A stretch of DNA of 60,530 nucleotides from Candidatus Acetothermia bacterium (GTDB taxonomy: Bacteria > Bipolaricaulota > Bipolaricaulia > UBA7950). The notes under the pieces are model-generated. The model had not been told where the DNA came from. It searched no databases and worked only from the letters and a program-made list of their open reading frames with translations. Shown piece after piece: positions 1,391-52,645 of this stretch. Location: NCBI GenBank assembly GCA_022684035.1, contig JAJHSB010000080.1:1-60530 (forward strand), in the 5' to 3' direction. A program made the translations under genes and the position numbers. Each line of letters starts with the position of its first letter. Position 1 is the stretch's first letter.

Positions 1391-1942
1391 ATGAAAATAA
1401 ACGTTGTTGAACGACAGCATAGTTCTAGCAAAAGTCCGAAAGAATACGCGATAAAAAAAACCGAGGCGCTCGACCGTTATTTTAATCGGGTAATAAGTGT
1501 CGATATTACTCTTTCAGTTGAAAGAGAAAAACAAATCGCGGATTTTGTTATCCATCTCATCAATCGTAAAATTATTAAGATACGTGAAGAATCAGATGAT
1601 ATGTATGCAGCGATCGATGGCGGAGTCGACAAGCTTAAACGACAACTGGTTAAGTATAAAGATAAGGTTAAGGATAAGGGATCGGGAAGTGCATTGCAAC
1701 AGAAGACTGAGGTCGTAGACGTATCGACCGATCTATCCGCTCTGATCCGACAGCAGGAGCACACGCACAAGGAGATTATCAGAACAGACCATGTTATTCG
1801 AAAGCCAATGTCACCCGAAGAGGCGGCACTCCAACTGACGGCTACCGATCAAATCTTTCTTGTTTTCATAAATGTGGCGTCTGGAACACCGAATGTCATT
1901 TACAAACGTAGGGATGGAAATTACGGACTTATAGAACCGTAA
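1391..1942 (+). CDS. hpf: Ribosome hibernation promoting factor, long form (HPF/RaiA)
   Basis: DMYAAIDGGVDKLKRQLVKYK N-domain plus C-terminal KPMSPEEAALQL...NVIYKRRDGNYGLIEP; ATG 1391 after aggag. Confidence 0.93.
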   Translation: MKINVVERQHSSSKSPKEYAIKKTEALDRYFNRVISVDITLSVEREKQIADFVIHLINRKIIKIREESDDMYAAIDGGVDKLKRQLVKYKDKVKDKGSGSALQQKTEVVDVSTDLSALIRQQEHTHKEIIRTDHVIRKPMSPEEAALQLTATDQIFLVFINVASGTPNVIYKRRDGNYGLIEP

Positions 1943-1979
1943 TTTTCTAAGCAGAAAGCTTCTCTTTTCTTTTGAAGAA

Positions 1980-3011
1980 GTGGTTATGGTAAGAGCTTTA
2001 TCGCTGTTCTCAGGAAGCTTAGCCAGCCTTGTTGCAACGCGGTTGGTGGAGCTGTCAGATGGGGTGGATGAAGTACAGTTATTGTCTTTTCGTTCACCGT
2101 TCTTTACTGATTATGAGCGGGTGCGTGAGATAGCCAAAAGAACTTGGCCGGCGATGCAGTTTCGTAGTCAGGCGATAAATAAAGACTATCAGCAGTTGGT
2201 GGGTATCTTATCTACTGATGAATTTTCACTGGCTCGTAGTTGTTACTATTGTCGTACTCTTATGTTGACGCGAGCAGCGCAATATATGAAACGGATCAAA
2301 GCAGATTTCATCGTCACCGGCGAGATAGAGGGAAGTAATGGATTGACGAAGTGCGAGTTAGAACGTATCAGCACTGATGCGGGGATCAGTGATCTTGTAT
2401 TACGTCCTCTCTCAGCAAAGTTGCTTTCCCCGACGCGGCCGGAGCAAGCGGGATGGGTTAATGCGGAAAACTTATACGATCTTCAAGTAGGTGATAAGGA
2501 ACGATTAGCAAAATTGGCGTTTACGTTAAACCTTGTTAATCAAAATTTGTTTGACCGATTTGACCGACAAGATAGGTGTAAATTGATTCGTCCTAACTTC
2601 GGGCCACGGTTAGCCGATCTTCTTTGTGAGAAAGAGTTTACACTGAATGGATTACGCCTGCTTGATTTTAGTTATTACTACAAGAAAGGACCGGATGTTA
2701 CGATTGTGCTGGCGATTGAAATAGAAGAGAAACGGAATTTACAGAATTTTTTTCTTCCCCAGGATGCGCGAGTCTATCTACCGACGCATCAGGGGCCATT
2801 GGCATTGGTTCGTACTGATTGGACAGCAAAGAAAGAAGATGAGATTGCGGAAATCATTGAATTGGCAGGGCGGATGATCGCTATTTATAGTGCAGCCGCA
2901 CATCATGAACAAATCCAAATTAACTATCGCTTTGAGAACAAGAACGAGACAATAAGCCGCACTATATCGCCGTTTGCTGACTTTAATGAAATTAATCGTT
3001 ATGCGGTTTAA
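1980..3011 (+). CDS. PP-loop tRNA thiouridylase-like (ThiI/MnmA-related, DUF814-type) protein with degenerate motifs
   Basis: ALSLFSGSLAS, CYYC, ADFIVTGE, VLRPLSAKLLSPTRPEQAGWV; start 1980 or 1986. Confidence 0.7.
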   Translation: MVMVRALSLFSGSLASLVATRLVELSDGVDEVQLLSFRSPFFTDYERVREIAKRTWPAMQFRSQAINKDYQQLVGILSTDEFSLARSCYYCRTLMLTRAAQYMKRIKADFIVTGEIEGSNGLTKCELERISTDAGISDLVLRPLSAKLLSPTRPEQAGWVNAENLYDLQVGDKERLAKLAFTLNLVNQNLFDRFDRQDRCKLIRPNFGPRLADLLCEKEFTLNGLRLLDFSYYYKKGPDVTIVLAIEIEEKRNLQNFFLPQDARVYLPTHQGPLALVRTDWTAKKEDEIAEIIELAGRMIAIYSAAAHHEQIQINYRFENKNETISRTISPFADFNEINRYAV

Positions 3012-3063
3012 TAGCGAATTTCTCGCACTGGAAACTATATTGTGCGGATTTCGTATTTTCATG

Positions 3064-3092
3064 TTGAAAAAAATATTGACCTGTGTTATATT
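3064..3092 (+). promoter_or_regulatory. Probable sigma70 promoter with extended -10
   Basis: TTGAAA(3064-3069)-17 nt-TATATT(3087-3092), TG at 3084-3085. Confidence 0.45.
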
Positions 3093-3145
3093 TATAGTTT
3101 AATTTAAAAATAGGGATCATCTCCAAAAAAGTTGGTAAGATCATG

Positions 3146-3280
3146 AGGATTCGAGGGAAATGCTTAAGAATTACAAAAGGATTCGAGGGGTCAAGCCCCG
3201 TATCAAGTACGGGGCAAGGATTCGCGGGAAATGCTTATAAAATCCTTACTCAAAAATAAGCACTTGAACCCTTGAACCCT
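3146..3280. repeat. Composite repeat: direct/inverted heptad-type repeats with an inserted REP-like palindrome
   Basis: aggattcg(a/c)ggg three times; gccccgta-tcaag-tacggggc (3195-3215); ataagcacttgaacccttgaaccct pairs back to the left arm. Confidence 0.75.
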
Positions 3281-3321
3281 TTATTTATTGGAACAAGGAT
3301 TAAAGAGGGAGGTAGTAAGGT

Positions 3322-3573
3322 ATGCCTTTTTTTCGCTATCAATGCCGTAAGTGCGGCGCGGAATTCAAAGTTTTGCAGCATAGCAATGACAAAATGGCAA
3401 CATGCTTAGAGTGTGATAGCAAATCGTTGGAGCAGCTTTTACCACGCATCGGGGTAATATACAAGGGGAGTGGCTATCATTCCACTGATTACAAAACTAC
3501 ACGTGCACGAGGGGCAGGAAGCAGTTCTGCAGATGATAAGCAATCAAGCAACGAAAATTCGGCTTCAGAATAA
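3322..3573 (+). CDS. FmdB-family zinc-ribbon protein
   Basis: MPFFRYQCRKCG...CLECDS...IYKGSGYHSTDY. Confidence 0.88.
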   Translation: MPFFRYQCRKCGAEFKVLQHSNDKMATCLECDSKSLEQLLPRIGVIYKGSGYHSTDYKTTRARGAGSSSADDKQSSNENSASE

Positions 3574-3630
3574 ACCGCCGGCATCTGATCTATTGGATAG
3601 ATGTGCGGAATGGCGGTTGCAATTTTTTTT
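3574..3630 (+). terminator. Probable intrinsic terminator
   Basis: accgcc...ggcggt stem enclosing gcatct/agatgtgc, followed by a T8 run. Confidence 0.5.
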
Positions 3631-3861
3631 AGAATGGATAAATCTTAAATCTATTGTGCTGGTAGTTATGGTGCAAGATAAGTAATTAAGAGATACGAAA
3701 TCAAAAATATATTACTACAGAGCATAAGGAACCGCTTTATCCTAACACACCCCTCTCAGCGGCAATCATTCAAACTAAAACTTGGGATTAAATCTAATTG
3801 GTACAGACAAGATGTAGATGATCAGGCGAATTAAGGAGCCTGTTAATGTAGGAGGTAGCAA

Positions 3862-6800
3862 TTGATCTCTGGCGATGATATACGGAAGATAAAACTTGAG
3901 CTGGCTTCTCCGGAGACGGTACTTAAGTGGTCTCATGGAGAAGTGACTAAATCTGAGACAATAAACTATCGCACCCATAAGCCGGAGCAAGGAGGGCTTT
4001 ACGCCGAACACATCTTCGGTCCTGAAAATGACTACGAATGCAGTTGCGGTAAATATAAAGGGAAAAAATATGAAGGGATAACTTGTGAAAAGTGTAGTGT
4101 TTTGGTGACTTCGTCTGCAGCGCGGCGCGTCAACTTTGGTCATATATCCTTAGTTAGCCCGGTGGTCCATTTTTGGTTTCTCAAAGGAGTATCCAGCCCC
4201 TTATCCCGCTTGTTGGGAATAAAAAAGAAGGAACTTGAACAGATCGTATATTACGAAACCGAATCGAGCACTGAATCTCTTTATATCGTTACCACTTCAC
4301 AATCAAAAGAGATCCGGCCAGGGGAGATTCTTTATAACTCGGAAATGCGGATTCTGCGCCGCCTCTTTGCCTTTGATGTTGAAGCGGCAATCTATATTGA
4401 AAATCCTCCTCAGGTTGTTGCCAGTGAAGGCGGGATTGTAAAGATTGAGGAAAGAAAGTTGACCAACGGCGAGCCGATGATCTTCATTGTCGTGGGATCA
4501 CAAGCCTATCCGGTATCTCCTGCTGTTCCATTACTCGTAGCAGAAGGGGATGAGATCGAGACTGACACCCTCCTTGCGGAGATGCCGGTTGATGAACTCT
4601 GTTCGCAAACGGCGTTTGCCATGTTCTCCGCGTATTATGGATCAGCATTGCAAGGCGAGGCAATCGAGGAGAATTTAGATTCTTTAATCTTTCTCGTTAC
4701 TAAAGTGAAGGATCCAGCTATTCCGCTTCAAGTTGGTGATCGGGTGTCATATCTTGAGAAGCGGGCATGGGAACGACTATATCCTGGAAAAATTGAAATA
4801 TACACCGGTGCCCATGGGGTCAAAGAACTGTTAACTCAACTAAATCTTGTTGAATTGCATAATCAGTTAACCGCCCAGATGCGTGCCGAGACGAGCCAAG
4901 GTAACCAACGGCGGATCGTTAAACGCCTCTCAATAGTCGATCAACTACTTAAATCAGGCAACCGACCCCAGAACATGGTGTTGGATGTGCTCCCAGTTCT
5001 TCCTCCGTTTCTGCGGCCGATGATCCAATTAGATGGAGGTAAGTTTGCGACCACCGACTTAAACGATCTTTATCGACGGATCATCAATCGTAATAATCGC
5101 TTGAAGAAATTAATTTCAATGGGAGCGCCAGAGGTGATTCTTCGTAATGAACGGCGGATGCTGCAAGAGTCTGTTGATGCATTAATTTATAACGAGAAGA
5201 AGGAAACACCGATTTGCGGACGTGACAACCAGCCGCTAAAGTCTCTCTCCGAACGACTACAGGGAAAACATGGGAGATTACGTCGTAACCTCCTCGGTCG
5301 ACGAGTTGATTACTCAGGACGGGCAGTGATCGTTGTCGATCCGACGCTCAAACTACATCAGTGTGGCTTACCGAAGAAAATAGCACTGGAACTTTTCAAA
5401 CCCTTTATCTTAAGCCGATTGAAAGAGACCGCTTTCTCTGATTTCGACGATATAAAGAACAAAGCACTTTTAGGAGAGCTGCCTGAAGTGTGGGATATTT
5501 TAGAAGAGCTGGTCAAAGAGCATCCGGTTCTTCTGAACCGCCAACCAACGCTTCATCGCATGTCAATTCAGGCATTTGAACCGCTATTGGTCGACGGCGA
5601 GGCAATTCATATACATCCACTTGTCTGTCCTCCTTATAACGCCGACTTTGATGGCGACCAGATGTCAGTTCATCTGCCCCTCTCAGTCGAGGCGATCTCT
5701 GAGGCACGTAATATTATGGCTGCTCCGCTGAATATTCTTTCGCCGTCCAATGGTGAACCGCTGACTGTACCATCGCAGGACCCGATCTTTGCTTTCCATT
5801 ACATGACCACAGTAAATCCTAATGGAAAAGGAAGAGGCAAATACTTCAAGAATATTGATGAGGCCCGGCGAGCATATGAAGAGAAGATAATCGATTTACA
5901 CAGCGAAATTAAAATTAAGATCGACGGAGAACTGATCGATTCGACCTTAGGGAGAGCTGAGATAAATCACATCCTGCCGTCTGAGATTCGTAATTATACA
6001 CGTCTTTATAGCCGTAAAGAGATCAAGCAACTCGTAATGGAATGTTACTATCGCTGCGGTAAAGAGCGTATGGCCGCTCTGCTCGATGACCTGAAAGACT
6101 TAGGATTTAAGTATGCTACGCACGCCGGTCTGACCATATCACTGAAAGATTGCTTGATCCCGCCAGAGAAGGAAGAGATTGTCCACCAGTCGTACGCCCG
6201 TGTCTTACTCGTTAATAAGATGTACGAGAGCGGTTTAGCCACCGAAAAGGAACGTTCTCAGGCGGTGATCAAAGTCTGGCGCCAGACCGTCGATGCAGTC
6301 GAAAAAGCGGCGATGAAAAACTTAAGCTGCCAGATGTTTAATCCGTTAGCTGGTATCGTCATTTCAGGGGCACGCGGGGGACCGGATCAAGTCAAACAAT
6401 TATGTGGAATGCGAGGACCGATGGCCGGTCCTTCCGGTGAGATCATCGAAATGCCCGTTATTTCCAATTTCCGTGAAGGGTTGGATATGATGGAATACTT
6501 TATTTCTACCCACGGAGGAAGAAAAGGTGCTGCCGATACAGCACTTAAAACAGCGGAATCAGGCTATCTGACCCGTCGGCTGGTCGATGCATGCTCCGAT
6601 GTTATCGTTATTGAAGAAGATTGCGGTACCCATCAAGGATCTGAGATTAATCCTTTTTGGTTCAGCAAAGGTGACCTCATGGTAAAGGTGGCAGATAGAA
6701 TTTACGGCCGCGTCACTGCTGAACCGGTGATCGATCCGCGATCAGGAGAGATTCTGATTGCCGCCAACCAGTGGATCGACAAAAATATGGCTCATTGGCT

Positions 6801-8808
6801 CGGCACGCTGCAACATGAGTTTGATCTCAATGACAAAGCTCAGGTTCAGAGAGCAGTAGGGATGAAGAGTGTAACGGATATCCATAATCCAGCAAATGGT
6901 CGGGTCTTAATGAGTGAAGACGAACCATTTACCGCTCATTTGGCGGAAGAATTATGTCGTGCTGGCTTCACGCACATCATCCTCCGCCCGCGAATCGTTA
7001 TCCGCTCTCCCATGACTTGCGAAACCGAAGGAGGGATATGCCAATTATGTTATGGCTTTGATCTTAGTAATCATCAGCCAGTGGCACTCGGCACTGCCGC
7101 AGGAGTTATTGCCGCCCAGTCAATCGGTGAACCAGGGACACAGTTAACGATGCGCACATTCCACACTGGTGGCGTAGCGGGGATCGATATTACCCAAGGA
7201 CTTCCGCGTGCTGAGGAACTCTTTGAAGCGCGCAAAACAATGAAAAGCGCCCAAGCTGCAGTATCTTCTCTCGATGGTTACGTTTCACGTATGCTCGCTT
7301 CTCCCGCAGGGCGGGAGATAGTGGAAATTACAGGAGAAGAGCGTGTCATTCGTATTCCATCTCTCTTATTGAACCCGGATCTTCTCCACGCAGATGAATC
7401 TAAATTAACAGAAGTGCAAGATCTGGTTGTGACAAAGAGTCCATATGAAGGTGAACTATTTGTCAAGGACGGTGATGGTGGGATAGAGATACTGATCATT
7501 AACAGCAAGAAAGGCGGACAAATATACAGACTGCCTAAAGGGGCGATTCCTGTTGTCGAGGATGGAGATGTAGTAAGAGAAGGAATTCCGCTGACAGAAC
7601 AGTTTACTGTTGAAACGGTCATCTCCGACAGCGCGGGTGTAGTCGAACTAAACAAAGAGAATGACCGTCAGCTTAATGTAGTTAGCGACGACGGAAATCT
7701 CCATTCATATCCAATCGCCTATGGCGCCCGTCCGCTGGTGAAAGCAGGTGATTGGGTGCACCCAGGCGATAAACTCATCTCAAAATCAAAGCCGATGGTA
7801 ATTACTGCCGCAGAAGCGGGCAAGGTAGCTTTGGTTGACGGTATCATCCTTATCTATACCCCACAGGTAAATGGTCTTCGCTTTCCTCTCACCACTGATC
7901 TCACTCTAATTAAAGAGCACGGAGAGATGGTAAAGGCAGGAGAACGTATTCTACAACTTAATCTACAACGATCCGGATCAGTAGTGATCGAGAAGGTTGA
8001 AGAAGAAGAGGGACTGACCACGGTCTATTTGCGCTACATCAGCCAAGTTGAAGTGGAACAGCGATCCGTTGTTAGCGTTGGAGATAAGGTGAGAGAGGGA
8101 GACCTTCTCACCAAAGGAGTCGTTCCTCCACATATTCTACTTGAGGCATCAGGGGTGAGAAAGACTCGCGACTATCTATTGAGCGAGATTCATAAGGTCT
8201 ATAAAACACAAGGTGTTGATCTAAGTGATAAACATATCGAAATTATCATTCGCCAAATTTTAAACAACGTACGGATAATCTCGCCGGGAGATGCAGATTT
8301 ATTATTAGATAGTTTGGTTTCACTGGAAACTTTTCGGGCAGAGATCGCAAGGATTACACGTATAAATGCTGCTGCAAGTCGTACTCGCCAAGAGGTATTG
8401 GGCGATACAATGACACCTCCGGCAAAAGTTGCACGTGATATTATTGCGATGGGGCGGGTAATCGCGCCAGCCGGAGAGTCGTTTACCGCCGAGATCCTTG
8501 TTGCTGCCCAAAGAGCAGGAATAGCAGAAGTAATCGGTATTCGTGATGGAAAAGAGATAGTGATCCCGCTGCGAGATTTGACTTTACCAACAGGTGAGCG
8601 GGAATTGTTACGCATATCCAAGGCTGCGTTATCGGCCAAAGGGTGGCTTGCCGCTGCTTCGTTCCTCCGTACGACCACGGTCCTTGCCGAGGCTGCCTTA
8701 CGAGGGGAAGTAGATGAACTTAAAGGGCTCAAACCGTGTGTCATTGTGGGAAAGAAGATACCAGTCGGCACCGGATTTAAGATGACGATCGATCAAGATG
8801 GAGAGTAG
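3862..8808 (+). CDS. rpoC: DNA-directed RNA polymerase beta' subunit with lineage-specific insertions
   Basis: Zn-ribbon ECSCGKY...[16 protein letters not shown], catalytic NADFDGDQM, bridge helix [13 protein letters not shown], trigger loop [11 protein letters not shown]; TTG start after aggagg. Confidence 0.98.
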
Positions 8809-10023: not shown

Positions 10024-10110
10024 TTGAGTCAATACAACGAGGAAAATCTATTGATTACCGAAACGACTCTTAGAAGAAGAGTTTTACTTTCTCAGACGGA
10101 AAGTAGAGCG

Positions 10111-12192
10111 ATGAGAATTGATAAAATCAGAAATATAGGGATTATTGCGCATATCGATGCCGGTAAGACGACTCTTACCGAACGTATTCTGTTTACCACG
10201 GGACAAATTTACAAAGTAGGGGAAGTTCATGAAGGGAATACAGAAATGGACTGGATGGCACAGGAACGCGCGCGGGGAATTACAATAACTTCTGCTGTTA
10301 CCAGTTGTCCGTGGAACGGCTATCAGATTAATATCATCGATACTCCCGGCCATGTTGATTTTACTGCGGAAGTGGTAAGGTCGTTGCGAATCCTCGACGG
10401 TGGAGTCGTTCTCTTCTCCGGAGTGGAGATGGTAGAAGCCCAAACCGAAACAGTATGGCGGCAAGCTGATCATTATAAGGTGCCTCGGATTGCGTTTATC
10501 AACAAGCTCGATCGCGTGGAGTCTAATTTTATAAAGACAGTGGAGATGATCGAGGATCGATTAAGCGGAAGACCTGTCCCGCTGCAGTTTCCGTATCGCG
10601 ATCCTGACCGTCGGTTCCTCGGAATGATCGATATATTAACGATGAATTTGATTATCAGGCAGGATACGCCACACGGAACAGAATCTAAATTGATCCCGAT
10701 CAAGAAAGAAGAGTCACTCTCGCTTTCACGCCGGTTTATCGATCGTCTTGAACGTTATCGCGAGATAGCAGTGGAACGTGTAGCAGAGATCGACGACCGC
10801 GTGATGGAACGATATTTGAATGAAGGAGATATCGATCTTGATCTCTTTTACCGTACGCTTCGACAGGGATGTCTGGAATTCGGTTATGTCCCTGTATTGG
10901 GGGGCTCAGCATTTACCCATCAGGGAATCCAACCACTCCTCGATGCAATCACAAACTATTTACCATCACCGCTCGATATTCCGTCAGTGAGCGCAATCGA
11001 TGATCCATCCATAATCCGTCGTGCTGATGAGCAAGAACCACTGGCGGCGCTCGCATATAAAGTTATGACCGATCGCTACGCTGGCCGGCTCGTTTTTTTA
11101 CGGATATATTCAGGGACGCTGGACGTAGGCCAGACCGTCTTTAACTCTTCTCGCAAGGAAAAACTGCGAATAATGAAACTGTACAGGATGCATGCAAATG
11201 ACCGGACGCCTCTTAACGAAGCTAAAGCCGGTGATATTATTGCTGTGGTCGGTTCAAAGAATATCGCTACAGGAGATACAATCTGCGATGTGCAAAGCCC
11301 AATCTTATTAGAAGAGATAAGATTTCCTGAACCAGTGATTTCAGTCGCGATTGAACCGCTCGGCGATTCGGAATCGGCTCGATTGTCAAAAGCATTACAA
11401 GAACTGGAAGCCGAGGATCCGACGTTTAAAGTGTCGATCGCCGAGGAAACAAATCAGATAATCATTTCAGGGATGGGGGAGCTGCACCTTGAGGTATTGC
11501 TGCAACGATTACAGGATGAACTAGGAGTTAACGTTAATGCGGGATTACCACAGGTCTCCTATCGCGAAACATTAAGTGTGCCGACGGTAGTCGAGGAGAA
11601 ATTTGTCAAACAGACTGGTGGGCATGGTCAGTACGGCCATGTCATTCTTGAACTCTCGCCACTTGAGCGGGGAAGAGGATTTGAGTTTAAATCCGCGATT
11701 AAAGGGGGGGAGATTCCCCGAGAATATATCTCATCTGTTGAAACTGGATTGATCGCCGCACTGGACAATGGGCCATTGGCCGGTTATCCTATAGTAGATC
11801 TCAGAGCTGTCCTTGTCGGTGGGTCGTTCCATCCGGTTGATTCCTCGGATCTGGCATTTAGATCTGCTGCGACGCGTGCATTGCGCAAAGTATGTAAGAC
11901 GAATTTTACTCTTTTAGAACCGATTATGGAGGGTGAGATCGTTACACCGGTGGAATATTTAGGTGATGTGATGGAAGATATTGCCCGGCGCCGCGGAATA
12001 ATCAAAAAGATATTAGCCAGAGATGCGGTACAAGTGATCACGGTCGCTGTTCCGCTTGCGGAGATGTTCGGCTATGCAACACAGGTGCGCTCATTGACTC
12101 AAGGCCGGGCAACCCATTCGCTGTGGCCAGCATACTATACGCAAGTACCGGCCGGCATCAAAGAGAAGATTATAAAGAGCAGAGGGGCTTAA
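10111..12192 (+). CDS. fusA: Elongation factor G
   Basis: IRNIGIIAHIDAGKTT, RGITIT, DTPGH, NKLD, GMGELHL, KQTGGHGQYG; start placed at ATG 10111. Confidence 0.96.
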   Translation: MRIDKIRNIGIIAHIDAGKTTLTERILFTTGQIYKVGEVHEGNTEMDWMAQERARGITITSAVTSCPWNGYQINIIDTPGHVDFTAEVVRSLRILDGGVVLFSGVEMVEAQTETVWRQADHYKVPRIAFINKLDRVESNFIKTVEMIEDRLSGRPVPLQFPYRDPDRRFLGMIDILTMNLIIRQDTPHGTESKLIPIKKEESLSLSRRFIDRLERYREIAVERVAEIDDRVMERYLNEGDIDLDLFYRTLRQGCLEFGYVPVLGGSAFTHQGIQPLLDAITNYLPSPLDIPSVSAIDDPSIIRRADEQEPLAALAYKVMTDRYAGRLVFLRIYSGTLDVGQTVFNSSRKEKLRIMKLYRMHANDRTPLNEAKAGDIIAVVGSKNIATGDTICDVQSPILLEEIRFPEPVISVAIEPLGDSESARLSKALQELEAEDPTFKVSIAEETNQIIISGMGELHLEVLLQRLQDELGVNVNAGLPQVSYRETLSVPTVVEEKFVKQTGGHGQYGHVILELSPLERGRGFEFKSAIKGGEIPREYISSVETGLIAALDNGPLAGYPIVDLRAVLVGGSFHPVDSSDLAFRSAATRALRKVCKTNFTLLEPIMEGEIVTPVEYLGDVMEDIARRRGIIKKILARDAVQVITVAVPLAEMFGYATQVRSLTQGRATHSLWPAYYTQVPAGIKEKIIKSRGA

Positions 12193-12193
12193 A

Positions 12194-12502
12194 ATGGCAA
12201 GAAAGAGAATAAGGATTAAAGTGCGTGGATATGACCACAATCTTGTTGACAACGCGATCAGGAAAGTAGTGACTGCAACAAAAGAGACGAGAGCGCAGAT
12301 AGTGGGGCCGGTTCCATTGCCGACAAGTAAACGAATCTATACGGTGCTGCGGTCTCCCCACATCGATAAGAAATCAATGGAGCACTTTGAGCGACGGATT
12401 CATACCCGTCTGATCGATATTAAAGAGCCGACCTCGGAAACGATCAACGCACTGATGGATATTGAACTTCCGACCGGCATCGATATCGAGATTAAAGTTT
12501 AA
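12194..12502 (+). CDS. rpsJ: 30S ribosomal protein uS10
   Basis: RIRIK..YDH...GPVPLPT...RSPH. Confidence 0.97.
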   Translation: MARKRIRIKVRGYDHNLVDNAIRKVVTATKETRAQIVGPVPLPTSKRIYTVLRSPHIDKKSMEHFERRIHTRLIDIKEPTSETINALMDIELPTGIDIEIKV

Positions 12503-20102: not shown

Positions 20103-20465
20103 GTGGCGCAACTAGTAAGAGAAAAAGAACGAAAACGTCGTCATCAACGGATACGAAAACAAATACATGGAACAGCACAGCGTCCACGCCTCTCTGTTTT
20201 TCGCAGCTTAAAACATATTTATGCGCAATTAATCGACGATGATACCGGCAAAACATTGGTCTCTGCTTCTACTCTTACCAAAGAACTGCAAAATGGTATC
20301 ACCGGGTTTAATTGTACTTCAGCAGAAAAGGTCGGCGAACTGCTGGCACGGCGTGCTGTGGAAGCAAAGATAACGACTGTGGTCTTTGATCGCAGCGGGT
20401 ATCGTTACCATGGTAAAATCAAAGCGCTCGCCGAGGCGTGTCGGAAAGGAGGACTTTGCTTTTGA
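20103..20465 (+). CDS. rplR: 50S ribosomal protein uL18
   Basis: [20 protein letters not shown]...[18 protein letters not shown]. Confidence 0.97.
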
Positions 20466-20989
20466 AAGAAAAAGATGAATATATAAGTGAAATTCTCAAT
20501 ATCAGCCGAGTGAGCACAGTTACCAAAGGCGGGCGGACTCTGAAGTTCCGTGTTTTATTGGCACTCGGCGATCAAAAGGGTAAAGTTGGTATCGGCTTTG
20601 GCAAAACGATCGATATTCCACGTGCGATTGAACAAGCAACCCGCGATGCGAAAAAGCAGATGGTCGATGTTAAGATTGTCAATGGAACAATCCCCCATCA
20701 GGTAGAAGGAAAGTTCAAGGCAGCAACTGTAATGCTCAAGCCGGCCTATCCAGGGACAGGAGTTATTGCTGGAATGACAGTCGGAATGATTTGTCGCCTT
20801 GCGGGAATAAAAGATATCTTGACGAAATCGCTGGGCACCAATAATCCGGTCAATTTGGCGCAAGCAACGATCGAAGGATTAGAAAAATTACGCAGCGCAG
20901 CGGAGATTGGAAATTTACGTGATAAAGAACTCACCTCGACCGCCAAACCTGAAGCTAAAATAATAGATGGAGAAGAAGATGGAACTTAA
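20462..20989 (+). CDS. rpsE: 30S ribosomal protein uS5
   Basis: [10 protein letters not shown]...[13 protein letters not shown]; TTG 20462 after aaggagg. Confidence 0.95.
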
Positions 20990-21425
20990 GGATCTGCGCC
21001 CCACACGAGGGAGTGTTAAACGGCGGAAACGGATCGGTCGAGGACATGGTTCTGGTCATGGCGGCCATGCGAGTGGCAGAGGGACTAAGGGACAGAATGC
21101 GCGCAGCGGTAGAGGCACACGCTTAGGGTATGAAGGTGGTCAAACTCCGCTGTGGATGCGATTTCCAAAACGAGGTTTCCATAACTACACACGCACAGAG
21201 TATTCAATCATCAATGTTGACATTCTGGCAGAACGATTTGAAAGTGGAGCGGAAATCACTTTAGAAAGATTACGTGAGATGGGGATAATTCGCCAACCAC
21301 AAAGAAGACTGAAGGTGTTAGGGAGAGGAGAGCTCTCCAAATCACTCATTGTCAAAGCAGATCAATTCACGAAAACAGCTCAAGCTAAGATTGAGCAGGC
21401 AGGTGGCAGAGCGGAGGTGCTTTAA
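20979..21425 (+). CDS. rplO: 50S ribosomal protein uL15
   Basis: RIGRGHGSG...GRGTKGQNARSG...YEGGQTPL..RFPKRGF. Confidence 0.97.
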   Translation: MELKDLRPTRGSVKRRKRIGRGHGSGHGGHASGRGTKGQNARSGRGTRLGYEGGQTPLWMRFPKRGFHNYTRTEYSIINVDILAERFESGAEITLERLREMGIIRQPQRRLKVLGRGELSKSLIVKADQFTKTAQAKIEQAGGRAEVL

Positions 21426-24551: not shown

Positions 24552-24584
24552 AATAAAATGACCTGCCTCATGGAATACTACTTC

Positions 24585-24644
24585 TCCTGTGCAGTCCCGA
24601 TGAATCTCTATTTCACGGGATTGCACAGGAATTCCCATGGGAAT
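24585..24644. repeat. REP-like long hairpin plus adjacent perfect 14-bp palindrome
   Basis: cctgtgcagtcccg(a)tgaa / ttcacgggattgcacagg (24586-24629); attcccatgggaat (24631-24644). Confidence 0.7.
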
Positions 24645-24670
24645 ACGATTTTACAGGTGGGAGGACTAAG

Positions 24671-25036
24671 ATGGCAAGAATAGCCGGAGTTGATTTACCA
24701 AAACATAAGCGAATTGAAATAGGAATTTCTTATATATACGGAGTTGGGAAATTTATTGCTAAGGAGATATTGCAAAAAACAGGGATATCACCTGATGTGC
24801 GAGTAAAAGATCTTACCGAAAAAGAGATCGCTGACTTACAACAAACACTCGATAACTATATGATAGAAGGAGATCTACGCCGTAAGATTCACTCCGATAT
24901 CAGTCGATTAAAAGCGATCAATTGCTATCGTGGGATCAGGCATAAATTGCGACTTCCAGTGCGTGGCCAGCGAACACGAGCCAATGCACGAACGTGGAAA
25001 GGACCACGTCCGGCCAAAGCAGGGAAGAAGAGGTAA
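24671..25036 (+). CDS. rpsM: 30S ribosomal protein uS13
   Basis: MARIAGVDLP...YRGIRHKLRLPVRGQRT. Confidence 0.97.
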   Translation: MARIAGVDLPKHKRIEIGISYIYGVGKFIAKEILQKTGISPDVRVKDLTEKEIADLQQTLDNYMIEGDLRRKIHSDISRLKAINCYRGIRHKLRLPVRGQRTRANARTWKGPRPAKAGKKR

Positions 25037-25038
25037 CG

Positions 25039-25371
25039 ATGGTCAAAAACATAAAAATTGATAAGGCGCAAATTCATATACATGCTAGTTTTAATAACAC
25101 AATTATTACATTGACTGATCTAAAAGGCAATCCAATTACATGGAAGAGTCCGGGAGTGGTCGGCTATAAAGGATCGCGCAAAGGAACACCTTACGCAGCG
25201 CAGATGGCGACTGAGGCACTGATACGTGATATGAAAGAGTATGGGGTCAAAGCAGCAATGGTGCTGGTAAAAGGAACAGGTCCAGGACGACAAGCAGTTA
25301 TCCAGACGATTAAAGGATCGGGGATTCGCGTCGATGAGATTAAAAACGTCACGTCGGTATCGTATAGCTAA
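25039..25371 (+). CDS. rpsK: 30S ribosomal protein uS11, lacking the C-terminal tail
   Basis: HIHASFNNTIITLTD...GYKGSRKGTPYAAQ; ends IKNVTSVSYS*. Confidence 0.95.
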   Translation: MVKNIKIDKAQIHIHASFNNTIITLTDLKGNPITWKSPGVVGYKGSRKGTPYAAQMATEALIRDMKEYGVKAAMVLVKGTGPGRQAVIQTIKGSGIRVDEIKNVTSVSYS

Positions 25372-25382
25372 AGGAGCAATAG

Positions 25383-26006
25383 ATGGGAAGAGATAGGGGA
25401 TTGAAATGCCGGCAATGCCGACGAGAAGGAGAGAAGCTGTTTCTGAAAGGGGACAGATGTTATACCCCCAAGTGTAGCATTGAGAAAGAAGCAAAACCTC
25501 CTGGAGATCAACCCAAACGGTGGCGTTCACGTAAGACTCCGTATGTAGTCCGGTTGAGAGAGAAGCAGAAACTGCGCCGAATATACGGGATTAGAGAAAG
25601 ACAGTTTAAAAATTATGTCTTGTTAGCTAAGACAGGAAAAGAAGCAGCAAGAGATGCTTTGCCCTCTATCTTGGAACGACGTCTGGACAGTGTGATATAT
25701 CGCTCTGGATTTGCTGCTTCACGTACGCAAGCCCGTCAACTAATATCACATGGGCATTTTGAGATCAATGGGCGCAGAGTGGATATTCCCTCGTACCTGG
25801 TTAACGAGGGTGATGTGATCAGCGTTAAAGAATCACGGCTTAGTTGGGTCAAAGAGATTGCCGCAGAGAACAAGGGCCGCACGTTTCCCAACTGGTTAGA
25901 GAAAGATGACGAAGCATTGAAAATTCAAGTTATCGGCCGTCCTAGCCCCGAGGATGTCGATTATACTATTAATTATGATCAAATCATCGAGTTTTATTCC
26001 CGTTAG
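25383..26006 (+). CDS. rpsD: 30S ribosomal protein uS4
   Basis: CRQCRREGEKLFLKG...LERRLDSVIYRSGFAASRTQARQL. Confidence 0.97.
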   Translation: MGRDRGLKCRQCRREGEKLFLKGDRCYTPKCSIEKEAKPPGDQPKRWRSRKTPYVVRLREKQKLRRIYGIRERQFKNYVLLAKTGKEAARDALPSILERRLDSVIYRSGFAASRTQARQLISHGHFEINGRRVDIPSYLVNEGDVISVKESRLSWVKEIAAENKGRTFPNWLEKDDEALKIQVIGRPSPEDVDYTINYDQIIEFYSR

Positions 26007-29774: not shown

Positions 29775-32168
29775 TTACCGTGCATACTTATTACGGTCCT
29801 TATCTTCATACATCAGTCTGTCTGCTTCACGTAAAAGTTTCTCCAGTTCTTGCTTGTCATTTGCTTGCCTGGTTACGCTGCCGATACTGAGCCCGATATT
29901 CAATTGGGAACAGAAAAGATCATGACTGAGCTGCTGTACATGCTCTTTGAGTCGCCGGGCAATCAATTCGATCTCTCCCTCCTTCGTCTCCGGCAGTAAG
30001 ATCAGAAATTCATCTCCTCCATAACGGATCACTCGATCGGTTGAACGCACGTTTTTCTGCAATATATCAGCTACTCTTTGGAGGACTTCATCTCCCTTTA
30101 GATGGCCAAACTTGTCGTTGACTCTTTTCAACTCATCTATATCGATCATCATGAAGGAGAGGGGCCGATTATAGCGGTCGGTTCGTGCCAGTTCCTGATC
30201 GATAATTATGTTGAAATAATGACGATTGTACAGCCCGGTCAGAGCGTCGTGGATCGCTTGCCGGCGTAATTCTTCTTGTGCACAGATGTTACTGATTGCA
30301 ACGGCAAGTATGCTGGCGATCGACTCCGCGACTTGGCGGTCCTGCGCATCGAACCGCGCCAGTTGAGCGCTTTCAATATTCAGCACTCCGAGCAGTTTCT
30401 CGCGGTGAATGATCGGAACAGCGAGCTCCGAGCGCGTCTCTCCATATCCGAGGACATAGCGATCATTCTTGGTAACATCGTCGACGATTACGCTCTCTCT
30501 GTGCTTGGCAACCCACCCTACTATCCCGCGGTCAAAGCTGAATTTATCTTTTACCTTGACCCGCTGACTCGTTTCGAGACGGCGCAGTCCCAAGACGATC
30601 AATTCAGAACCCTCTTTGAGAAGGATAGCAGTTAGATAGTAACCGAAATGTTCGTCGAGCCAATCGAGTGTAATCTCTGTTAACTCAAAGAGCGTATCGA
30701 TCTGAGCAAGCTGTTGGCTGAACGTATATATGCGCTGGAGTTCATCATGTCTCCTTAGGTTAACGATACCGCTTGTCAACTGACTTGCCACTGCAGTCAA
30801 AAATTTGACATCTTCCTGCGTGAAGTAAGCAAGTCGCTTGCTCTCCATTTGCATTAGACCAATTATTTCTTCCTTGTCAATCATCGGGATAATAACTTCA
30901 GAATGCGCAGTCCGGCAAAGTCTGCTATGCCGCTCGTCTTCGCTGACATCAGGGATCACCAGTAGTGTACCCTGCCGTGCCACCCAGGGAATGACTCCTT
31001 GATCATCCAGGGAGATACGTGTTCCAGTAGTAATCCATTCGTCTCCTGCCGGATCAACCACGGCAACAACAGCGCGGGCCACCAGTTCGTTTGATTCTTT
31101 CAACCATATCGCTCCAAAATCATACGCAAAATAATCCTGCAAGCGGTGTAAGGTTGACTCGAGTAAGGTAGGGATATTGACTGCGTCAATCATTATTTGG
31201 CCAAAATCATAGAACTGATGCAGTCTTTCTTGTAGTTTCTCCAACTGCTGTAATCTATAGACTCGCTCGATCGCCAATGCCGCCATATTGACCAAAATAC
31301 CAATCGGCTCTAATGCTGCGATTGTCGGGATATTCCCGCCGTCATGCGGAGCATCGATCGACAAATGGCCGATGATCCCTTTTTCGCTACGCAGAGGAAT
31401 GAGCAGAAGATCATCTCTGTGCCATCCCGCAGTCATTGCCTTACCTTGAGCACCATGTGGATTCTGCCAGGGGGTCTTGGCGTGGGGAACATAATAAGCA
31501 GGTCCATATTCAAATTCCTTTGTAAAGAGGTAATGGCGGTCATGTGGGGAGAGACCTCTATTTTCCATTCGACGTTGAATATCTTGTGGTGAGATACCAG
31601 CGGCAACGACTGTGCACACTTTCCCATCGATCGGCGATGGAAGCGACAGATCATACAATGAGAGAGCGGCACGGGGAAAATTACTGTGAAGAACGACGGT
31701 ATCAACGATTATCTGAAGGATGTGATCAATATTACTCTCTGTGAGGATCGTTGTTGCCACTTTTAGAATAGCCTGTTGCAGCTGTTCCAACCTACGGACA
31801 GAAGAGGATATATTGTGCAGTAAACGTTGTTTTTCACTGGCATAATCGATCATCTGTTTCAGTTGGGAAACAGAAATCAGCTCCGCCTGGTTGTCAATTG
31901 TCGTCTTCCTGTTTTGTGTGGTGACCACTATTATCTGGTCTTTAGGAGAGGTTTGCTCAATCTTAGTGCGGATAGCAGCCTCTGCCACGCCGGCAAGGAT
32001 GACGAGATCGAACTGCTCCTCTTGCAATATGATGAGGGCCTCTTGTTCATCTCTTACCTCTTTTACATAGTAGTTATCATGGCGGAGAAGGGCAGCAAGT
32101 GGGTGGCATCGCTCTCTTTTATCGGTGACAAGGAGGATTTTTCTTCCTGTGCCGGCAGTTGTGGTCAT
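29775..32168 (-). CDS. Diguanylate cyclase: pseudo-receiver, ~3 GAF domains, GGDEF
   Basis: DALTGLYNR, MIDID, RSTD I-site, RYGGDEF; GAF signatures (SEVIIPM, SELAVPI). Confidence 0.9.
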   Translation of the reverse strand: MTTTAGTGRKILLVTDKRERCHPLAALLRHDNYYVKEVRDEQEALIILQEEQFDLVILAGVAEAAIRTKIEQTSPKDQIIVVTTQNRKTTIDNQAELISVSQLKQMIDYASEKQRLLHNISSSVRRLEQLQQAILKVATTILTESNIDHILQIIVDTVVLHSNFPRAALSLYDLSLPSPIDGKVCTVVAAGISPQDIQRRMENRGLSPHDRHYLFTKEFEYGPAYYVPHAKTPWQNPHGAQGKAMTAGWHRDDLLLIPLRSEKGIIGHLSIDAPHDGGNIPTIAALEPIGILVNMAALAIERVYRLQQLEKLQERLHQFYDFGQIMIDAVNIPTLLESTLHRLQDYFAYDFGAIWLKESNELVARAVVAVVDPAGDEWITTGTRISLDDQGVIPWVARQGTLLVIPDVSEDERHSRLCRTAHSEVIIPMIDKEEIIGLMQMESKRLAYFTQEDVKFLTAVASQLTSGIVNLRRHDELQRIYTFSQQLAQIDTLFELTEITLDWLDEHFGYYLTAILLKEGSELIVLGLRRLETSQRVKVKDKFSFDRGIVGWVAKHRESVIVDDVTKNDRYVLGYGETRSELAVPIIHREKLLGVLNIESAQLARFDAQDRQVAESIASILAVAISNICAQEELRRQAIHDALTGLYNRHYFNIIIDQELARTDRYNRPLSFMMIDIDELKRVNDKFGHLKGDEVLQRVADILQKNVRSTDRVIRYGGDEFLILLPETKEGEIELIARRLKEHVQQLSHDLFCSQLNIGLSIGSVTRQANDKQELEKLLREADRLMYEDKDRNKYAR

Positions 32169-33067
32169 AGGATTATCTCCTCTTTGGTGAGGATTTCTAT
32201 CTCATCTTTATCCTCTGTCCAATCTTTACGGATTCGCACTACCAGATCAAGAAAGACGTTTGTTCCGAGAAGTATTTCGATATCACGGCGGGCGCGGGTA
32301 CCGATCTCTTTGATCATTGCGCCGCCTTTTCCGATGATTATTCCTCGTTGTGACTTACGCGCAACGTATATCTCAGCGCGGATATGCGCTGACGCAGCAG
32401 ATCGTTGCTCAATCTCTTTTACACGTACGGCAGTTGAATACGGCAGTTCTTGAAAAGTGAGTTGAATAATCTTCTCACGGATCAATTCACTGACCAGAAA
32501 CTCTTCGCTTTGGTCGGTCGTCATATCGACGGGGAAATAGGCCGGCCGGTGTGGCAGATAACCGATTATCGTGCGTAATGCCTCAGTGAGATTCGTTCCC
32601 TTTTGCGCTGATATTGGAATCAATTTGGCAAAGATATCGGTACGCGCATAAGCGAGTAATGTCTCTTCCAATGCATTCCCGCTTGCGCGGTCAATTTTAT
32701 TAACGAGCAGGATAATCGGTTTATCATGATCTGTTAACCGGTCTAACAGAAGCGTATCATAGGCTGACAACTTGCCCCACGGCTCAACCATATAGAGAAT
32801 GAGGTCGAGTTCACGCAGCGCGCGATAGGCTTGTCGCAAAATATGACGACTCAATTTGGTATGCGGACGATGGAGGCCAGGGGTGTCAACAAAGACGATC
32901 TGGACGTTCTCGCAATTATAAATACAGCGAATGCGGTTTCGTGTCGTCTGTGGCTTAGGCGATGTGATCACCAATTTCTTTCCTAAAATAGCATTGACAA
33001 ATGTCGATTTGCCGACATTTGTCTGGCCGATAACACCGACGAACCCAGAGCTAAAGGATTCCATCAA
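32165..33067 (-). CDS. era: GTPase Era
   Basis: GQTNVGKST, PQTTRN, VDTPG, NKID, KH domain IIIGKGGAMIKEIG. Confidence 0.96.
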   Translation of the reverse strand: MMESFSSGFVGVIGQTNVGKSTFVNAILGKKLVITSPKPQTTRNRIRCIYNCENVQIVFVDTPGLHRPHTKLSRHILRQAYRALRELDLILYMVEPWGKLSAYDTLLLDRLTDHDKPIILLVNKIDRASGNALEETLLAYARTDIFAKLIPISAQKGTNLTEALRTIIGYLPHRPAYFPVDMTTDQSEEFLVSELIREKIIQLTFQELPYSTAVRVKEIEQRSAASAHIRAEIYVARKSQRGIIIGKGGAMIKEIGTRARRDIEILLGTNVFLDLVVRIRKDWTEDKDEIEILTKEEIIL

Positions 33068-34607
33068 TCAGTTCTCCATCTTTAACGGCGCGAGTCAGGC
33101 GATCGATATCCCGAGCAAGGAACCTATCTTCGGCAAGGTGGGGGACAAGAGAGCGAATTCGCTTGTAGACCTGTCGTGTCGGTTCAGCAAGACGGTCAGA
33201 GAGACGAAAATCGAGCGCTTGCGCGGCACAGAGAAATGTGATCGCCACCACTCGTTCTACGTTCTCGATCACTCGCAAACTCTTAGCAGCAGCGATCGAC
33301 CCCATGCTGTTATGGTCCTCTTTGCCTCCTGAGGTGGGAATCGAATCGACCCCGGCCGGATGGCAGAGGATTTTGTTCTCACTGACTAAAGCTGCTGCCG
33401 TATACTGAGCAATCATCAGACCGGAGTTAATTCCATTATTTTCCACGAGAAAGAGTGGTAGGCCTCGATCAGAGCTTGTCAGCAAGCGGTCGGTCTGCCG
33501 CTCAGCGATGCTGCCGATTTCAGCGATCGCCATCGCTGTCATATCGAGTGTGAGAGCAAGGATTTGTCCATGAAAGTTACCACCGGAGATTACTGTTCCA
33601 TCACTCCAGATAAGCGGATTATCAGTAGCAGAATTAATTTCTATTGTAATCTTCTCTGCCAGAAAGGCGAGCGCCTCCCATGCCGGGCCAAGTATCTGTG
33701 GCAAGCAGCGTAGTGAATAAGCATCTTGCACCTCTTGCGAATTACAACAGTCTGTTTCTGCTGGATCATACCGGTCATTTGAGCGGTTGTTGAATGATCC
33801 GTCTATTTTCCGCACCAGTCGGCTGCCGTTAATCATGTGGCGGATAAGCCGAGCAATTTCGACTTGCCCAGGATGCGGTCGGACAGCATGGAGCCGTTCG
33901 TCAAACGGAGTAGTGAAGCCTTGTAGTCCTTCCAGAACGAGTGCACCAACGGCAACAGCATTCTTAAGCAGCCGTTTGCCGCGGAGTAAGGAGAGAAACC
34001 CGAGTGCACTCATGTATTGAGTTCCATTAAGCAGCGCCAGCCCTTCCTTCGGAGCTAAATCGAGTGCTGATCGATTGATCAACTTAAGGGCCTCTGTCGC
34101 GCTGATTACTCGTCCATTGTGCTCTGCCTCACCCTCACCGAGGAGGATTGCCGCCATATGGGCAAGTGGGATCAGATCACCGGATGAACCGACCGACCCT
34201 TGGTGCGGAATAAGTGGATGAATTTTGTGGTTAAGTAGCTGGACCAGATAATCGATCGTCGTTAAGCGAATCCCTGATAATCCCTTAAGGAGCGAATTTA
34301 TGCGAAAGAGGATCATTGCACGTACTGCTTCGGTCGGTAAAGGCTCTCCTACGCCGGTGCTGTGGCTTAAAATTATATTGCGCTGTAATCTTCCTAAGTT
34401 ATCAACAGGAATAGCTCGATCACTCAATTTACCGCACCCGGTATTGATCCCATAAGCGGGACGGCGCGTGGTAACGATCTTCTCTACCATTGTTGCTGAT
34501 TTGTCGACACAACAGCGCCCAGCAGCAGTGATGATAACCGGATGTTGTGCGATGATCACTCTTTCCGCTTGGTCTAATGTCAAATTATTTCCATCTAATT
34601 CGATCAT
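33051..34607 (-). CDS. hutH: Histidine ammonia-lyase (MIO triad Ser-Ser-Gly)
   Basis: YGINTGCG, ILSHSTG, GSVGSSGDL, KEGLALLNGT, QDAYSLRC, SGGNFHG, EDHNSMG. Confidence 0.88.
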   Translation of the reverse strand: MIELDGNNLTLDQAERVIIAQHPVIITAAGRCCVDKSATMVEKIVTTRRPAYGINTGCGKLSDRAIPVDNLGRLQRNIILSHSTGVGEPLPTEAVRAMILFRINSLLKGLSGIRLTTIDYLVQLLNHKIHPLIPHQGSVGSSGDLIPLAHMAAILLGEGEAEHNGRVISATEALKLINRSALDLAPKEGLALLNGTQYMSALGFLSLLRGKRLLKNAVAVGALVLEGLQGFTTPFDERLHAVRPHPGQVEIARLIRHMINGSRLVRKIDGSFNNRSNDRYDPAETDCCNSQEVQDAYSLRCLPQILGPAWEALAFLAEKITIEINSATDNPLIWSDGTVISGGNFHGQILALTLDMTAMAIAEIGSIAERQTDRLLTSSDRGLPLFLVENNGINSGLMIAQYTAAALVSENKILCHPAGVDSIPTSGGKEDHNSMGSIAAAKSLRVIENVERVVAITFLCAAQALDFRLSDRLAEPTRQVYKRIRSLVPHLAEDRFLARDIDRLTRAVKDGELIDGIL

Positions 34608-52286: not shown

Positions 52287-52363
52287 TCGCCCTGTTTAGG
52301 GAGGATACGATTAGACGCTTGCAGAGAGCAGAGAACGGCCGTACATACACATAAAGGAGAAAA

Positions 52364-52609
52364 ATGGGCTTTACATGTGGGTTGATCGGCTTACCCAATG
52401 TCGGCAAATCTATGCTGTTGAACGCACTCTCTGCTGCCGGTGCCCAGGTGGAGAGTTATCCATTCTCCACATCATTTGCCAATGTCAATGTAGCAGATGT
52501 GCCGGATGAGCAGCTCGACCTTCTTGCCGCTTTCCGGAGAAGCAGAAGATCCCCACCCAATTACAGTTCCTTGATATCGCCGGCTTAGTGAGCGGAGCAA
52601 GCACGGGAG
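52364..52609 (+). pseudogene. ychF: Truncated, frameshifted ychF 5' fragment
   Basis: Copy of the ychF start with GKSML P-loop change and a 4-nt deletion (gccgctttcc vs gccgctctctttcc); homology ends at 52609. Confidence 0.9.
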
Positions 52610-52645
52610 GAGAAATGCGAGGAGGAAGGGACAGTGGAGTGACAG

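Follow-up and report, generated by a model that had tools for sequence, protein, structure and literature searches.

A tail-less ribosomal protein uS11 from a Candidatus Bipolaricaulota member and its putative pocket in the 30S platform

The ribosomal protein uS11 encoded in a 60,530-nucleotide stretch of DNA from a Candidatus Acetothermia bacterium (GenBank assembly GCA_022684035.1, contig JAJHSB010000080.1; the whole stretch is referred to here as the window) lacks its C-terminal tail. The missing tail is a real observation, which our analysis confirms. It is likely that this protein is a functional, lineage-wide form of uS11 whose chain ends inside the kink pocket of 16S rRNA, that isoaspartate and YbeY are superfluous for it, and that the pocket has been remodelled with retention of a stacking residue. 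In this best explanation, which we hold with high confidence as a whole, the window rpsK is normal, expressed and present in a single copy in its host, a groundwater bacterium of the phylum Bipolaricaulota. The central observation is already in the literature, and the present analysis is mainly an independent confirmation of it. Its additions to the main text of Xue et al. (2026) are incremental and concern Tyr118, 16S positions 715 and 718, the origin of short neo-tails from Shine-Dalgarno (SD) spacers, and SD usage.

uS11 was described in 2020 as having a tail and an isoaspartate that are nearly universal. IsoAsp119 was reported for E. coli uS11, as part of a near-universal motif, by Watson et al. 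(2020; PMC7550191). The isoAsp region packs on three purine-purine pairs of 16S rRNA, and His118 is stacked on the conserved purine A718. Two preprints of 27 August 2026 show that the modification depends on a dedicated enzyme, bacteria using YbeY while archaea and eukaryotes use Fap7, and that enzyme presence tracks Asn or Asp at the kink. According to Xue et al. (bioRxiv 10.64898/2026.08.26.747336, 27 August 2026), YbeY is a zinc enzyme that turns Asn119 into isoaspartate, and the uS11 truncation of Bipolaricaulota is linked to YbeY loss. No natural exception is clearer than that of a whole phylum without the tail, which puts the purpose of the modification to the test.

Results

The window uS11 ends at the isoaspartate site

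The rpsK gene (25039-25371, forward strand; ATG at 25039, TAA at 25369-25371) occupies its canonical slot in the alpha operon, which has the order rpsM-rpsK-rpsD-rpoA-rplQ. Its upstream neighbour is rpsM (uS13; 24671-25036, forward strand), whose 3' end contains the rpsK SD sequence GAAGAGG (25027-25033, forward strand), and its downstream neighbour is rpsD (uS4; 25383-26006, forward strand), which encodes the Pfam S4 and Ribosomal_S4 domains. The translated open reading frame comprises 110 residues and ends in IKNVTSVSYS, an ending also given as GIRVDEIKNVTSVSYS followed by TAA. In E. coli numbering, the last eight codons (25345-25368, forward strand) specify N112, V113, T114, S115, V116, S117, Y118 and S119, with Tyr118 encoded by TAT at 25363-25365. 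The TAA stop codon (forward strand) is the truncation point and falls at the Gly120 position. The PHNG kink motif and the basic tail, both near-universal in uS11, are missing, and positions 117-119 read S-Y-S before the stop. In place of the Asn119-Gly120 substrate motif, the protein presents Ser119 and then the stop.

The protein matches the Pfam Ribosomal_S11 profile (PF00411) with an E-value of 3.2e-33 and 114.9 bits against a cut-off of 25.1. The match covers profile positions 3-98 of 110 and leaves the last 12 positions (99-110) unmatched. The uS11 chains of the PDB are matched at an E-value of about 5e-31, and the alignments with these solved chains, which are 128-131 residues long when complete, extend to query residue 108-109, opposite residue 114-118 of the full-length chain. 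A first-pass annotation of this DNA had proposed that the 110-residue protein lacks its C-terminal tail and, with it, the HNG isoaspartate site. The open reading frame, the Pfam profile and the PDB alignments bear out the former claim, and Ser119 followed by a stop bears out the latter. The same annotation had remarked on a short N-terminal extension; the shortness is real, with 9 residues ahead of the conserved core, but it is unremarkable given the range of 6-19 residues in the clade.

The AlphaFold2 model of uS11 has a pLDDT of 89.6 and a pTM of 0.80, and the best 50 Foldseek matches in the PDB are all uS11 chains, with query-normalised TM-scores of 0.86-0.94. The confidence of the model together with the exclusively uS11 matches argues for an intact globular domain. 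The alpha/beta fold and the globular RNA-binding domain of uS11 are thus intact.

The tail is not restored in another frame

We sought a tail-like PHNGCRPPK(K/R)RRV peptide (compare HNGCRPPKKRRV) in both other frames and in the stop read-through of rpsK and found none that resembles it. Past the rpsK end, the +1 frame reads TSRRYRIAKGAIDGKR before a stop and is basic by chance, the +2 frame reads KRHVGIV before a stop, and read-through of the rpsK stop gives RSNRWEEIGD before the next stop. A tblastn and motif search of the 60.5-kb window, with an approximate E. coli uS11 query, revealed neither a second rpsK, a check that the first-pass annotation had advised, nor a tail-like peptide. The rpsD SD sequence AAGGAG (25371-25376, forward strand) starts at the final base of the rpsK stop codon and forms a duplex of -8.0 kcal/mol with the anti-SD. 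Two further claims of the annotation, that the ending is not a simple frameshift and that the rpsD SD follows rpsK immediately, thus hold. The rpsK stop is separated from the rpsD ATG (25383) by 11 nt, and rpsD lies so close downstream that there is no space for a tail-coding segment.

The truncated gene is authentic and transcribed

Sixteen contigs, drawn from three NCBI MAGs, one JGI metagenome and several Logan assemblies, encode the same 110-residue uS11, and in each of them the gene lies between rpsM and rpsD. The contigs of four sequencing runs, one of which is a groundwater metatranscriptome (run X10), show zero indels against positions 24900-25600 and an unchanged rpsK, including its stop codon. 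One run has a C>T change in rpsM, which is the sole difference across this region. Word depth is up to 1351 among the four runs, and the operon is transcribed in run X10. A check against reads had been advised by the annotation, and the agreement of the 16 contigs and four runs, one of them RNA, establishes that the truncation is not an error.

It is accordingly very improbable that the short protein stems from an error in sequencing or assembly, or from a decaying pseudogene, while a full-length copy of rpsK exists in another part of the genome. Such a reading draws on the fact that the second-copy search covered 60 kb of this genome. It conflicts with the recurrence of the same uS11 on 16 contigs from independent samples, with the absence of indels in four runs that include RNA, with an end point that stays constant without frameshifts over 111 diverged clusters (53-89% identity), and with the canonical operon slot. 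The GTDB-wide survey of Xue et al. (2026) likewise presents the truncated form as the uS11 of Bipolaricaulota. Restoration of the tail during translation, by programmed frameshifting or stop-codon read-through, is barely credible. Apart from the chance basicity of the +1 frame we count no support for it, and it is opposed by the lack of anything like HNGCRPPKKRRV in either frame or in the read-through product, by the 11 nt available before the rpsD ATG, and by the absence of protein-level conservation downstream of the stop. Xue et al. (2026) reached the same conclusion.

The truncation is a trait of the Bipolaricaulota

A search for uS11 homologues at E <= 1e-10 yielded 1554 homologues, of which the best 111 clusters are considered here as the clade. 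These 111 clusters end at NVTP(V/T)(S/P)HS or a few residues further on and are 53-89% identical to the window uS11. Those with names belong to Candidatus Bipolaricaulota or Acetothermia, apart from one labelled Caldiserica (P0058), whose truncated uS11 clusters with that of Ca. Bipolaricaulota sp. J31. Matches 112-120 are ordinary uS11 proteins with PIPHNGCRPPKRRRV. The alignment of uS11 across the lineage, another check advised by the annotation, thus identifies the truncation as clade-wide among the best 111 clusters of 1554 homologues. These sequence comparisons indicate that tail loss is a clade trait of the Bipolaricaulota (Acetothermia/OP1) and is not private to this organism. The membership of the window organism in the Bipolaricaulota follows from its closest homologues (<=89% identity), which are named Candidatus Bipolaricaulota or Acetothermia, and from the co-occurring 16S rRNA, which is about 82-83% identical to Bipolaricaulota 16S and has the GGUAYC signature in common with it.

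The chain ends exactly at residue 119 in 60 of the 111 clusters and is 3-9 residues longer in the other 51, for example by KGRR or SNKGKR. At position 119, 108 clusters have Ser, two have Gly (P0088 and P0096) and one has Asn (P0069). Position 118 is occupied by His in 109 clusters and by Phe in one, the window protein alone having Tyr, and 111/111 clusters thus have a side chain capable of stacking (His, Tyr or Phe) here. Relative to the clade consensus NVTPVSHS, the window protein carries the changes P115S and H118Y, and its combination of Tyr118 and Ser115 is unique among the 111 clusters.

Short basic endings derive from the rpsD SD spacer

In tail-less members, the rpsD SD lies directly 3' of the rpsK stop. 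From the last rpsK codon to the rpsD start, the window reads AGC TAA AGG AGC AAT AG ATG, and two tail-less relatives read AGC TGA GGA GAG ATA G ATG (L055) and AGC TAG GGA GGA TCG AGG ATG (L054). The sequence downstream of the rpsK stop exhibits no protein-level conservation among relatives. A neo-tail subclade does not have this stop, and its rpsK continues across the SD spacer, which is rich in purines, and overlaps rpsD in TAATG, as in AGC AGT AAT AAG GGG AAA CGC TAATG and AGC AAG GGG AGA AGG TAATG. Since the reading frame runs through the SD spacer to TAATG, the short basic tails are translated SD spacer and not remnants of the ancestral tail. Two point changes (AAC to AGC and GGA to TGA) could have turned H-N-G into H-S-stop. 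One subclade would later have lost the stop, and read-through of rpsK would then have produced Lys/Arg/Gly neo-tails that are non-homologous to the ancestral tail.

The 16S pocket carries rare nucleotides at positions 715 and 718

The window contains no rRNA or other RNA gene at Rfam gathering thresholds, and the 16S rRNA was therefore taken from elsewhere. It was assigned by co-occurrence in small, single-organism-like runs that bear the window, not by a shared contig. Runs X2, X6, X7 and X8, and X9 in part, have one 16S type, which is the only contig matched in X2. The assigned 16S reads GAUACUGUGAGGUACCUCA followed by AUGGCGAAGG, and its positions 713-718 are GGUACC, with U715 and C718. The numbering was fixed by E. 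coli rrsH, whose positions 715-718 are AAUA. The deepest groundwater run, X1, was rejected as a source for the 16S of the window organism, given the presence of an abundant 16S of a different type with GGAACG at 713-718 (compared with L025:5121-5442). This normal-type 16S has a word depth of about 2200, is about 90 nt shorter than the Bipolaricaulota reference and probably comes from another dominant community member.

Positions 678-744 of Bipolaricaulis 16S were initially taken from the FISH probes in Table S4 of Hao et al. (2018). Among GTDB species genomes, a scan with a pattern that required C718, and is thus not usable for the frequency of C718, yielded 17 loci of one 16S type, 12 of them labelled Bipolaricaulota or Acetothermia. 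In a metagenome scan that left 715-718 free, 19 Bipolaricaulota-type 16S sequences were recovered; all 19 have C718, 14 have U715 and 5 have A715. Five MAGs with Bipolaricaulota-type 16S (L019, L021, L028, L030 and L031) are labelled Thermotogaceae, Thermotoga sp., Caldisericota or 'uncultured bacterium' at NCBI; these labels are probably wrong or the bins mixed.

Both nucleotides are rare in bacteria. Among about 2080 bacteria in Supplementary file 2 of Watson et al. (2020), position 718 is A in 1964, G in 69, U in 31 and C in 17 (0.8%), and the 675::715 pair is A::A in 2065 and A::U in 1 of about 2077. The table contains no Bipolaricaulota-type strings (gtatc, gtacc or gaatc), and the baseline thus excludes the phylum. 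In the Rfam bacterial SSU consensus, G714 and A715 are in upper case, that is, highly conserved. The canonical pocket consists of a purine at 718 and purine-purine pairs at 674:716, 675:715 and 676:714, and the Bipolaricaulota depart from it with C718 throughout the 19 sequences and U715 in most of them. C718 is constant across lineages whose 16S is only about 82-83% identical, and it turns up sporadically in bacteria whose uS11 should be ordinary, for example Parabacteroides distasonis. The first-pass annotation had pointed to h23, h24 and h45 as places where 16S might covary with uS11. Changes do exist, at the h22/h23 junction (715 and 718), but the h23 690 loop, the h24 790 loop and the h45 GGAA loop are canonical in the Bipolaricaulota, as is the anti-SD CCUCC. 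The co-variation of uS11 and 16S is an association that represents one evolutionary event in one clade and does not amount to a statistical test.

SD usage, YbeY and other platform proteins

A core SD motif is located 4-18 nt upstream of 39 of the 66 gene starts in the window (59%), compared with 10% at random positions, and the mean anti-SD duplex energy is -7.1 kcal/mol at gene starts versus -2.5 at random positions. Strong SD use, as the annotation had claimed for this genome, is thus evident. Xue et al. (2026) list three options for YbeY-less bacteria, namely compensatory bS21 anchoring, no need for the SD, or no bS21. The SD result narrows these options, and the second of them is unlikely to apply to this organism.

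No ybeY is present in the 60-kb window, including the surroundings of era (32165-33067, minus strand), which is weak evidence for the whole genome. The era gene, which encodes MMR_HSR1 and KH_2 domains, overlaps the end of an aromatic/histidine ammonia-lyase gene upstream and has a GAF-GGDEF gene after it (32165-34607, minus strand); phoH, dgkA and ybeY are absent as neighbours at this locus. Searches by tblastn with approximate bS21, bS18, bS6 and YbeY queries gave no match in 453 kb of DNA, from which nothing follows for whole genomes. Neither ybeY nor rpsU is listed in the annotation tables of Hao et al. (2018). Three ribosomal proteins encoded in the window have ordinary lengths (uS7, 152 residues; uS13, 121 residues; uS4, 207 residues).

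Other features of the window

The 119-nt spacer between rpmJ and rpsM (24552-24670) folds into a long hairpin, with arms at 24586-24599 and 24616-24629, and a small hairpin. Its minimum free energy is -45.4 kcal/mol (z = -5.0), and an enclosing pairing covers the rpsM SD in part. The spacer has no Rfam match and is not repeated elsewhere within the window. It is missing in relatives L052-L054, where rpmJ adjoins rpsM, and is partially similar in L055; a leader of the alpha operon peculiar to this lineage and an inserted element are both conceivable.

Several gene arrangements are also of note. About 285 nt of the promoter-proximal end of ychF are duplicated (52330-52615 and 55622-55905) with 93% identity and an identical SD and start, the duplicate has a 4-nt deletion, and a GTPase fragment of 74 residues remains ahead of a YhfC-like gene. 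In the spc operon of the window, rpsE (uS5) overlaps the start of rplO (uL15) at 20438-21425, and no rpmD (uL30) is present. In the region 1391-8808, the place ahead of rpoC (3862-8808, 1648 aa) is taken not by rpoB or rplKAJL but by genes for a hibernation factor, an NFACT-R_2 protein and a small zinc-ribbon protein. The fusA gene is directly followed by rpsJ (10024-12502), and there is thus no tuf between the str and S10 operons.

Discussion

The ending of uS11 in Bipolaricaulota can be placed within a structural model of the platform. In ordinary ribosomes, the isoAsp kink would allow the tail to pack in the groove of 16S 716-718, with His118 stacked on purine 718, and the tail would then bridge h23 and h45 and contact bS21. 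The Bipolaricaulota chain would end inside the 716-718 pocket, one residue past position 118, and an ending at this point would make the kink, the isoAsp and YbeY unneeded. YbeY itself appears to have been lost throughout the phylum, according to Xue et al. (2026). The pocket may have been remodelled to suit the shortened chain, with C718 in place of a purine. In most members, U715 would convert the middle purine-purine pair, A675-A715, into a potential Watson-Crick pair. An aromatic or imidazole ring is retained at position 118, mostly as His and in the window organism as Tyr, and the remodelled platform would still support SD-dependent initiation.

We propose, tentatively and with somewhat less than even confidence, that the Bipolaricaulota 30S platform has been naturally re-engineered: the pocket would have co-evolved with uS11 (C718 and A675-U715), isoAsp and YbeY would have become unnecessary, SD use would have been kept, and the capping His118 would have been replaced by Tyr in this organism. 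The rare 16S states sit exactly at the nucleotides that hold the kink. If the proposal is true, the phylum reveals what is dispensable in the 'universal' uS11 tail/isoAsp/YbeY module, along with the rRNA changes that permit it. The 16S states, the retention at position 118, the SD-spacer neo-tails and the SD usage could guide ybeY-suppressor and minimal-platform experiments.

A tail-less but functional uS11 may also have arisen by neutral degeneration, in which the unmodified tail became harmful or useless after YbeY loss and was deleted without compensation, the changes at 715 and 718 being unrelated drift. E. coli without ybeY is consistent with such a course, given that the unmodified N119 causes only minimal local change in its 70S particles, and so are the occurrence of C718 in bacteria expected to have normal uS11 and the retention of A715 in 5/19 Bipolaricaulota 16S sequences. 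However, drift does not readily explain why C718 is found in 19/19 sequences across 16S that is only about 82-83% identical, or why U715, which is nearly absent elsewhere (1 in about 2077), is common here. In addition, His, Tyr or Phe at position 118 in 111/111 clusters argues for ongoing selection on the contact, and we regard uncompensated loss as unlikely. Another reading, which we consider decidedly unlikely, is that the roles of the tail as an h23-h45 bridge, bS21 anchor and lining of the mRNA exit have moved to another platform protein, with the 16S changes incidental. The candidates would be an extended bS18, bS6, bS21 or uS7, or a lineage-specific protein. The proposal by Xue et al. 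(2026) of compensatory bS21 anchoring or bS21 loss in YbeY-less bacteria lends support to such a transfer, as does the single-clade nature of the 16S association. Against it, uS7, uS13 and uS4 are of ordinary length and the window holds no candidate, bS6, bS18 and bS21 being encoded outside it. Such a takeover can coexist with our best explanation, a functional uS11 that ends in a remodelled kink pocket.

The first-pass annotation had suggested an undescribed platform variant. In this respect it was overtaken by Xue et al. (2026), who already catalogue the truncation for the clade. No other paper that names both 'Bipolaricaulota' and 'uS11' was found among those searched. The main text of Xue et al. 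(2026) checks three reading frames for the Bipolaricaulota tail and describes H118 as kept in frame 0; it contains no 16S 715/718 changes, SD-spacer origin of neo-tails or SD usage.

Comparison with known uS11 systems delineates what is shared and what is distinct. The window protein resembles the Bipolaricaulota uS11 described by Xue et al. (2026) in its stop at codon 120, its loss of Asn119-Gly120 and the basic tail, and the outcome in the three frames. It differs from that form, which keeps H118, in its Tyr118 and Ser115. With canonical uS11 from E. coli and T. thermophilus, it shares the fold, 37-50% identity, the operon position and the core motifs HIHASFNNT and GSRKGTPYAAQ. Unlike canonical uS11, it stops about 10 residues early, without G120 to V129 and the isoAsp site, and carries Asn in place of Asp112 and Ser in place of Pro117. 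The YbeY-less Dojkabacteria, Gracilibacteria and UBP14, which have G119-G120 according to Xue et al. (2026), have lost the isomerisable Asn together with YbeY, as have the Bipolaricaulota. However, their uS11 is reported there to combine a full-length tail with a Gly substitution, whereas the Bipolaricaulota have deleted the tail outright. Archaeal and eukaryotic uS11, with Asp at the kink and Fap7 as the enzyme, represents an alternative solution at the same kink. In archaeal 16S, the 674:716 and 675:715 pairs are Watson-Crick (G-C and U-A), which is loosely similar to the A675-U715 of most Bipolaricaulota. Archaea and eukaryotes nevertheless keep a long tail and a Fap7-made isoAsp, and Xue et al. 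(2026) report no link to Fap7 for the Bipolaricaulota, whose uS11 has dispensed with both the tail and the isoAsp site.
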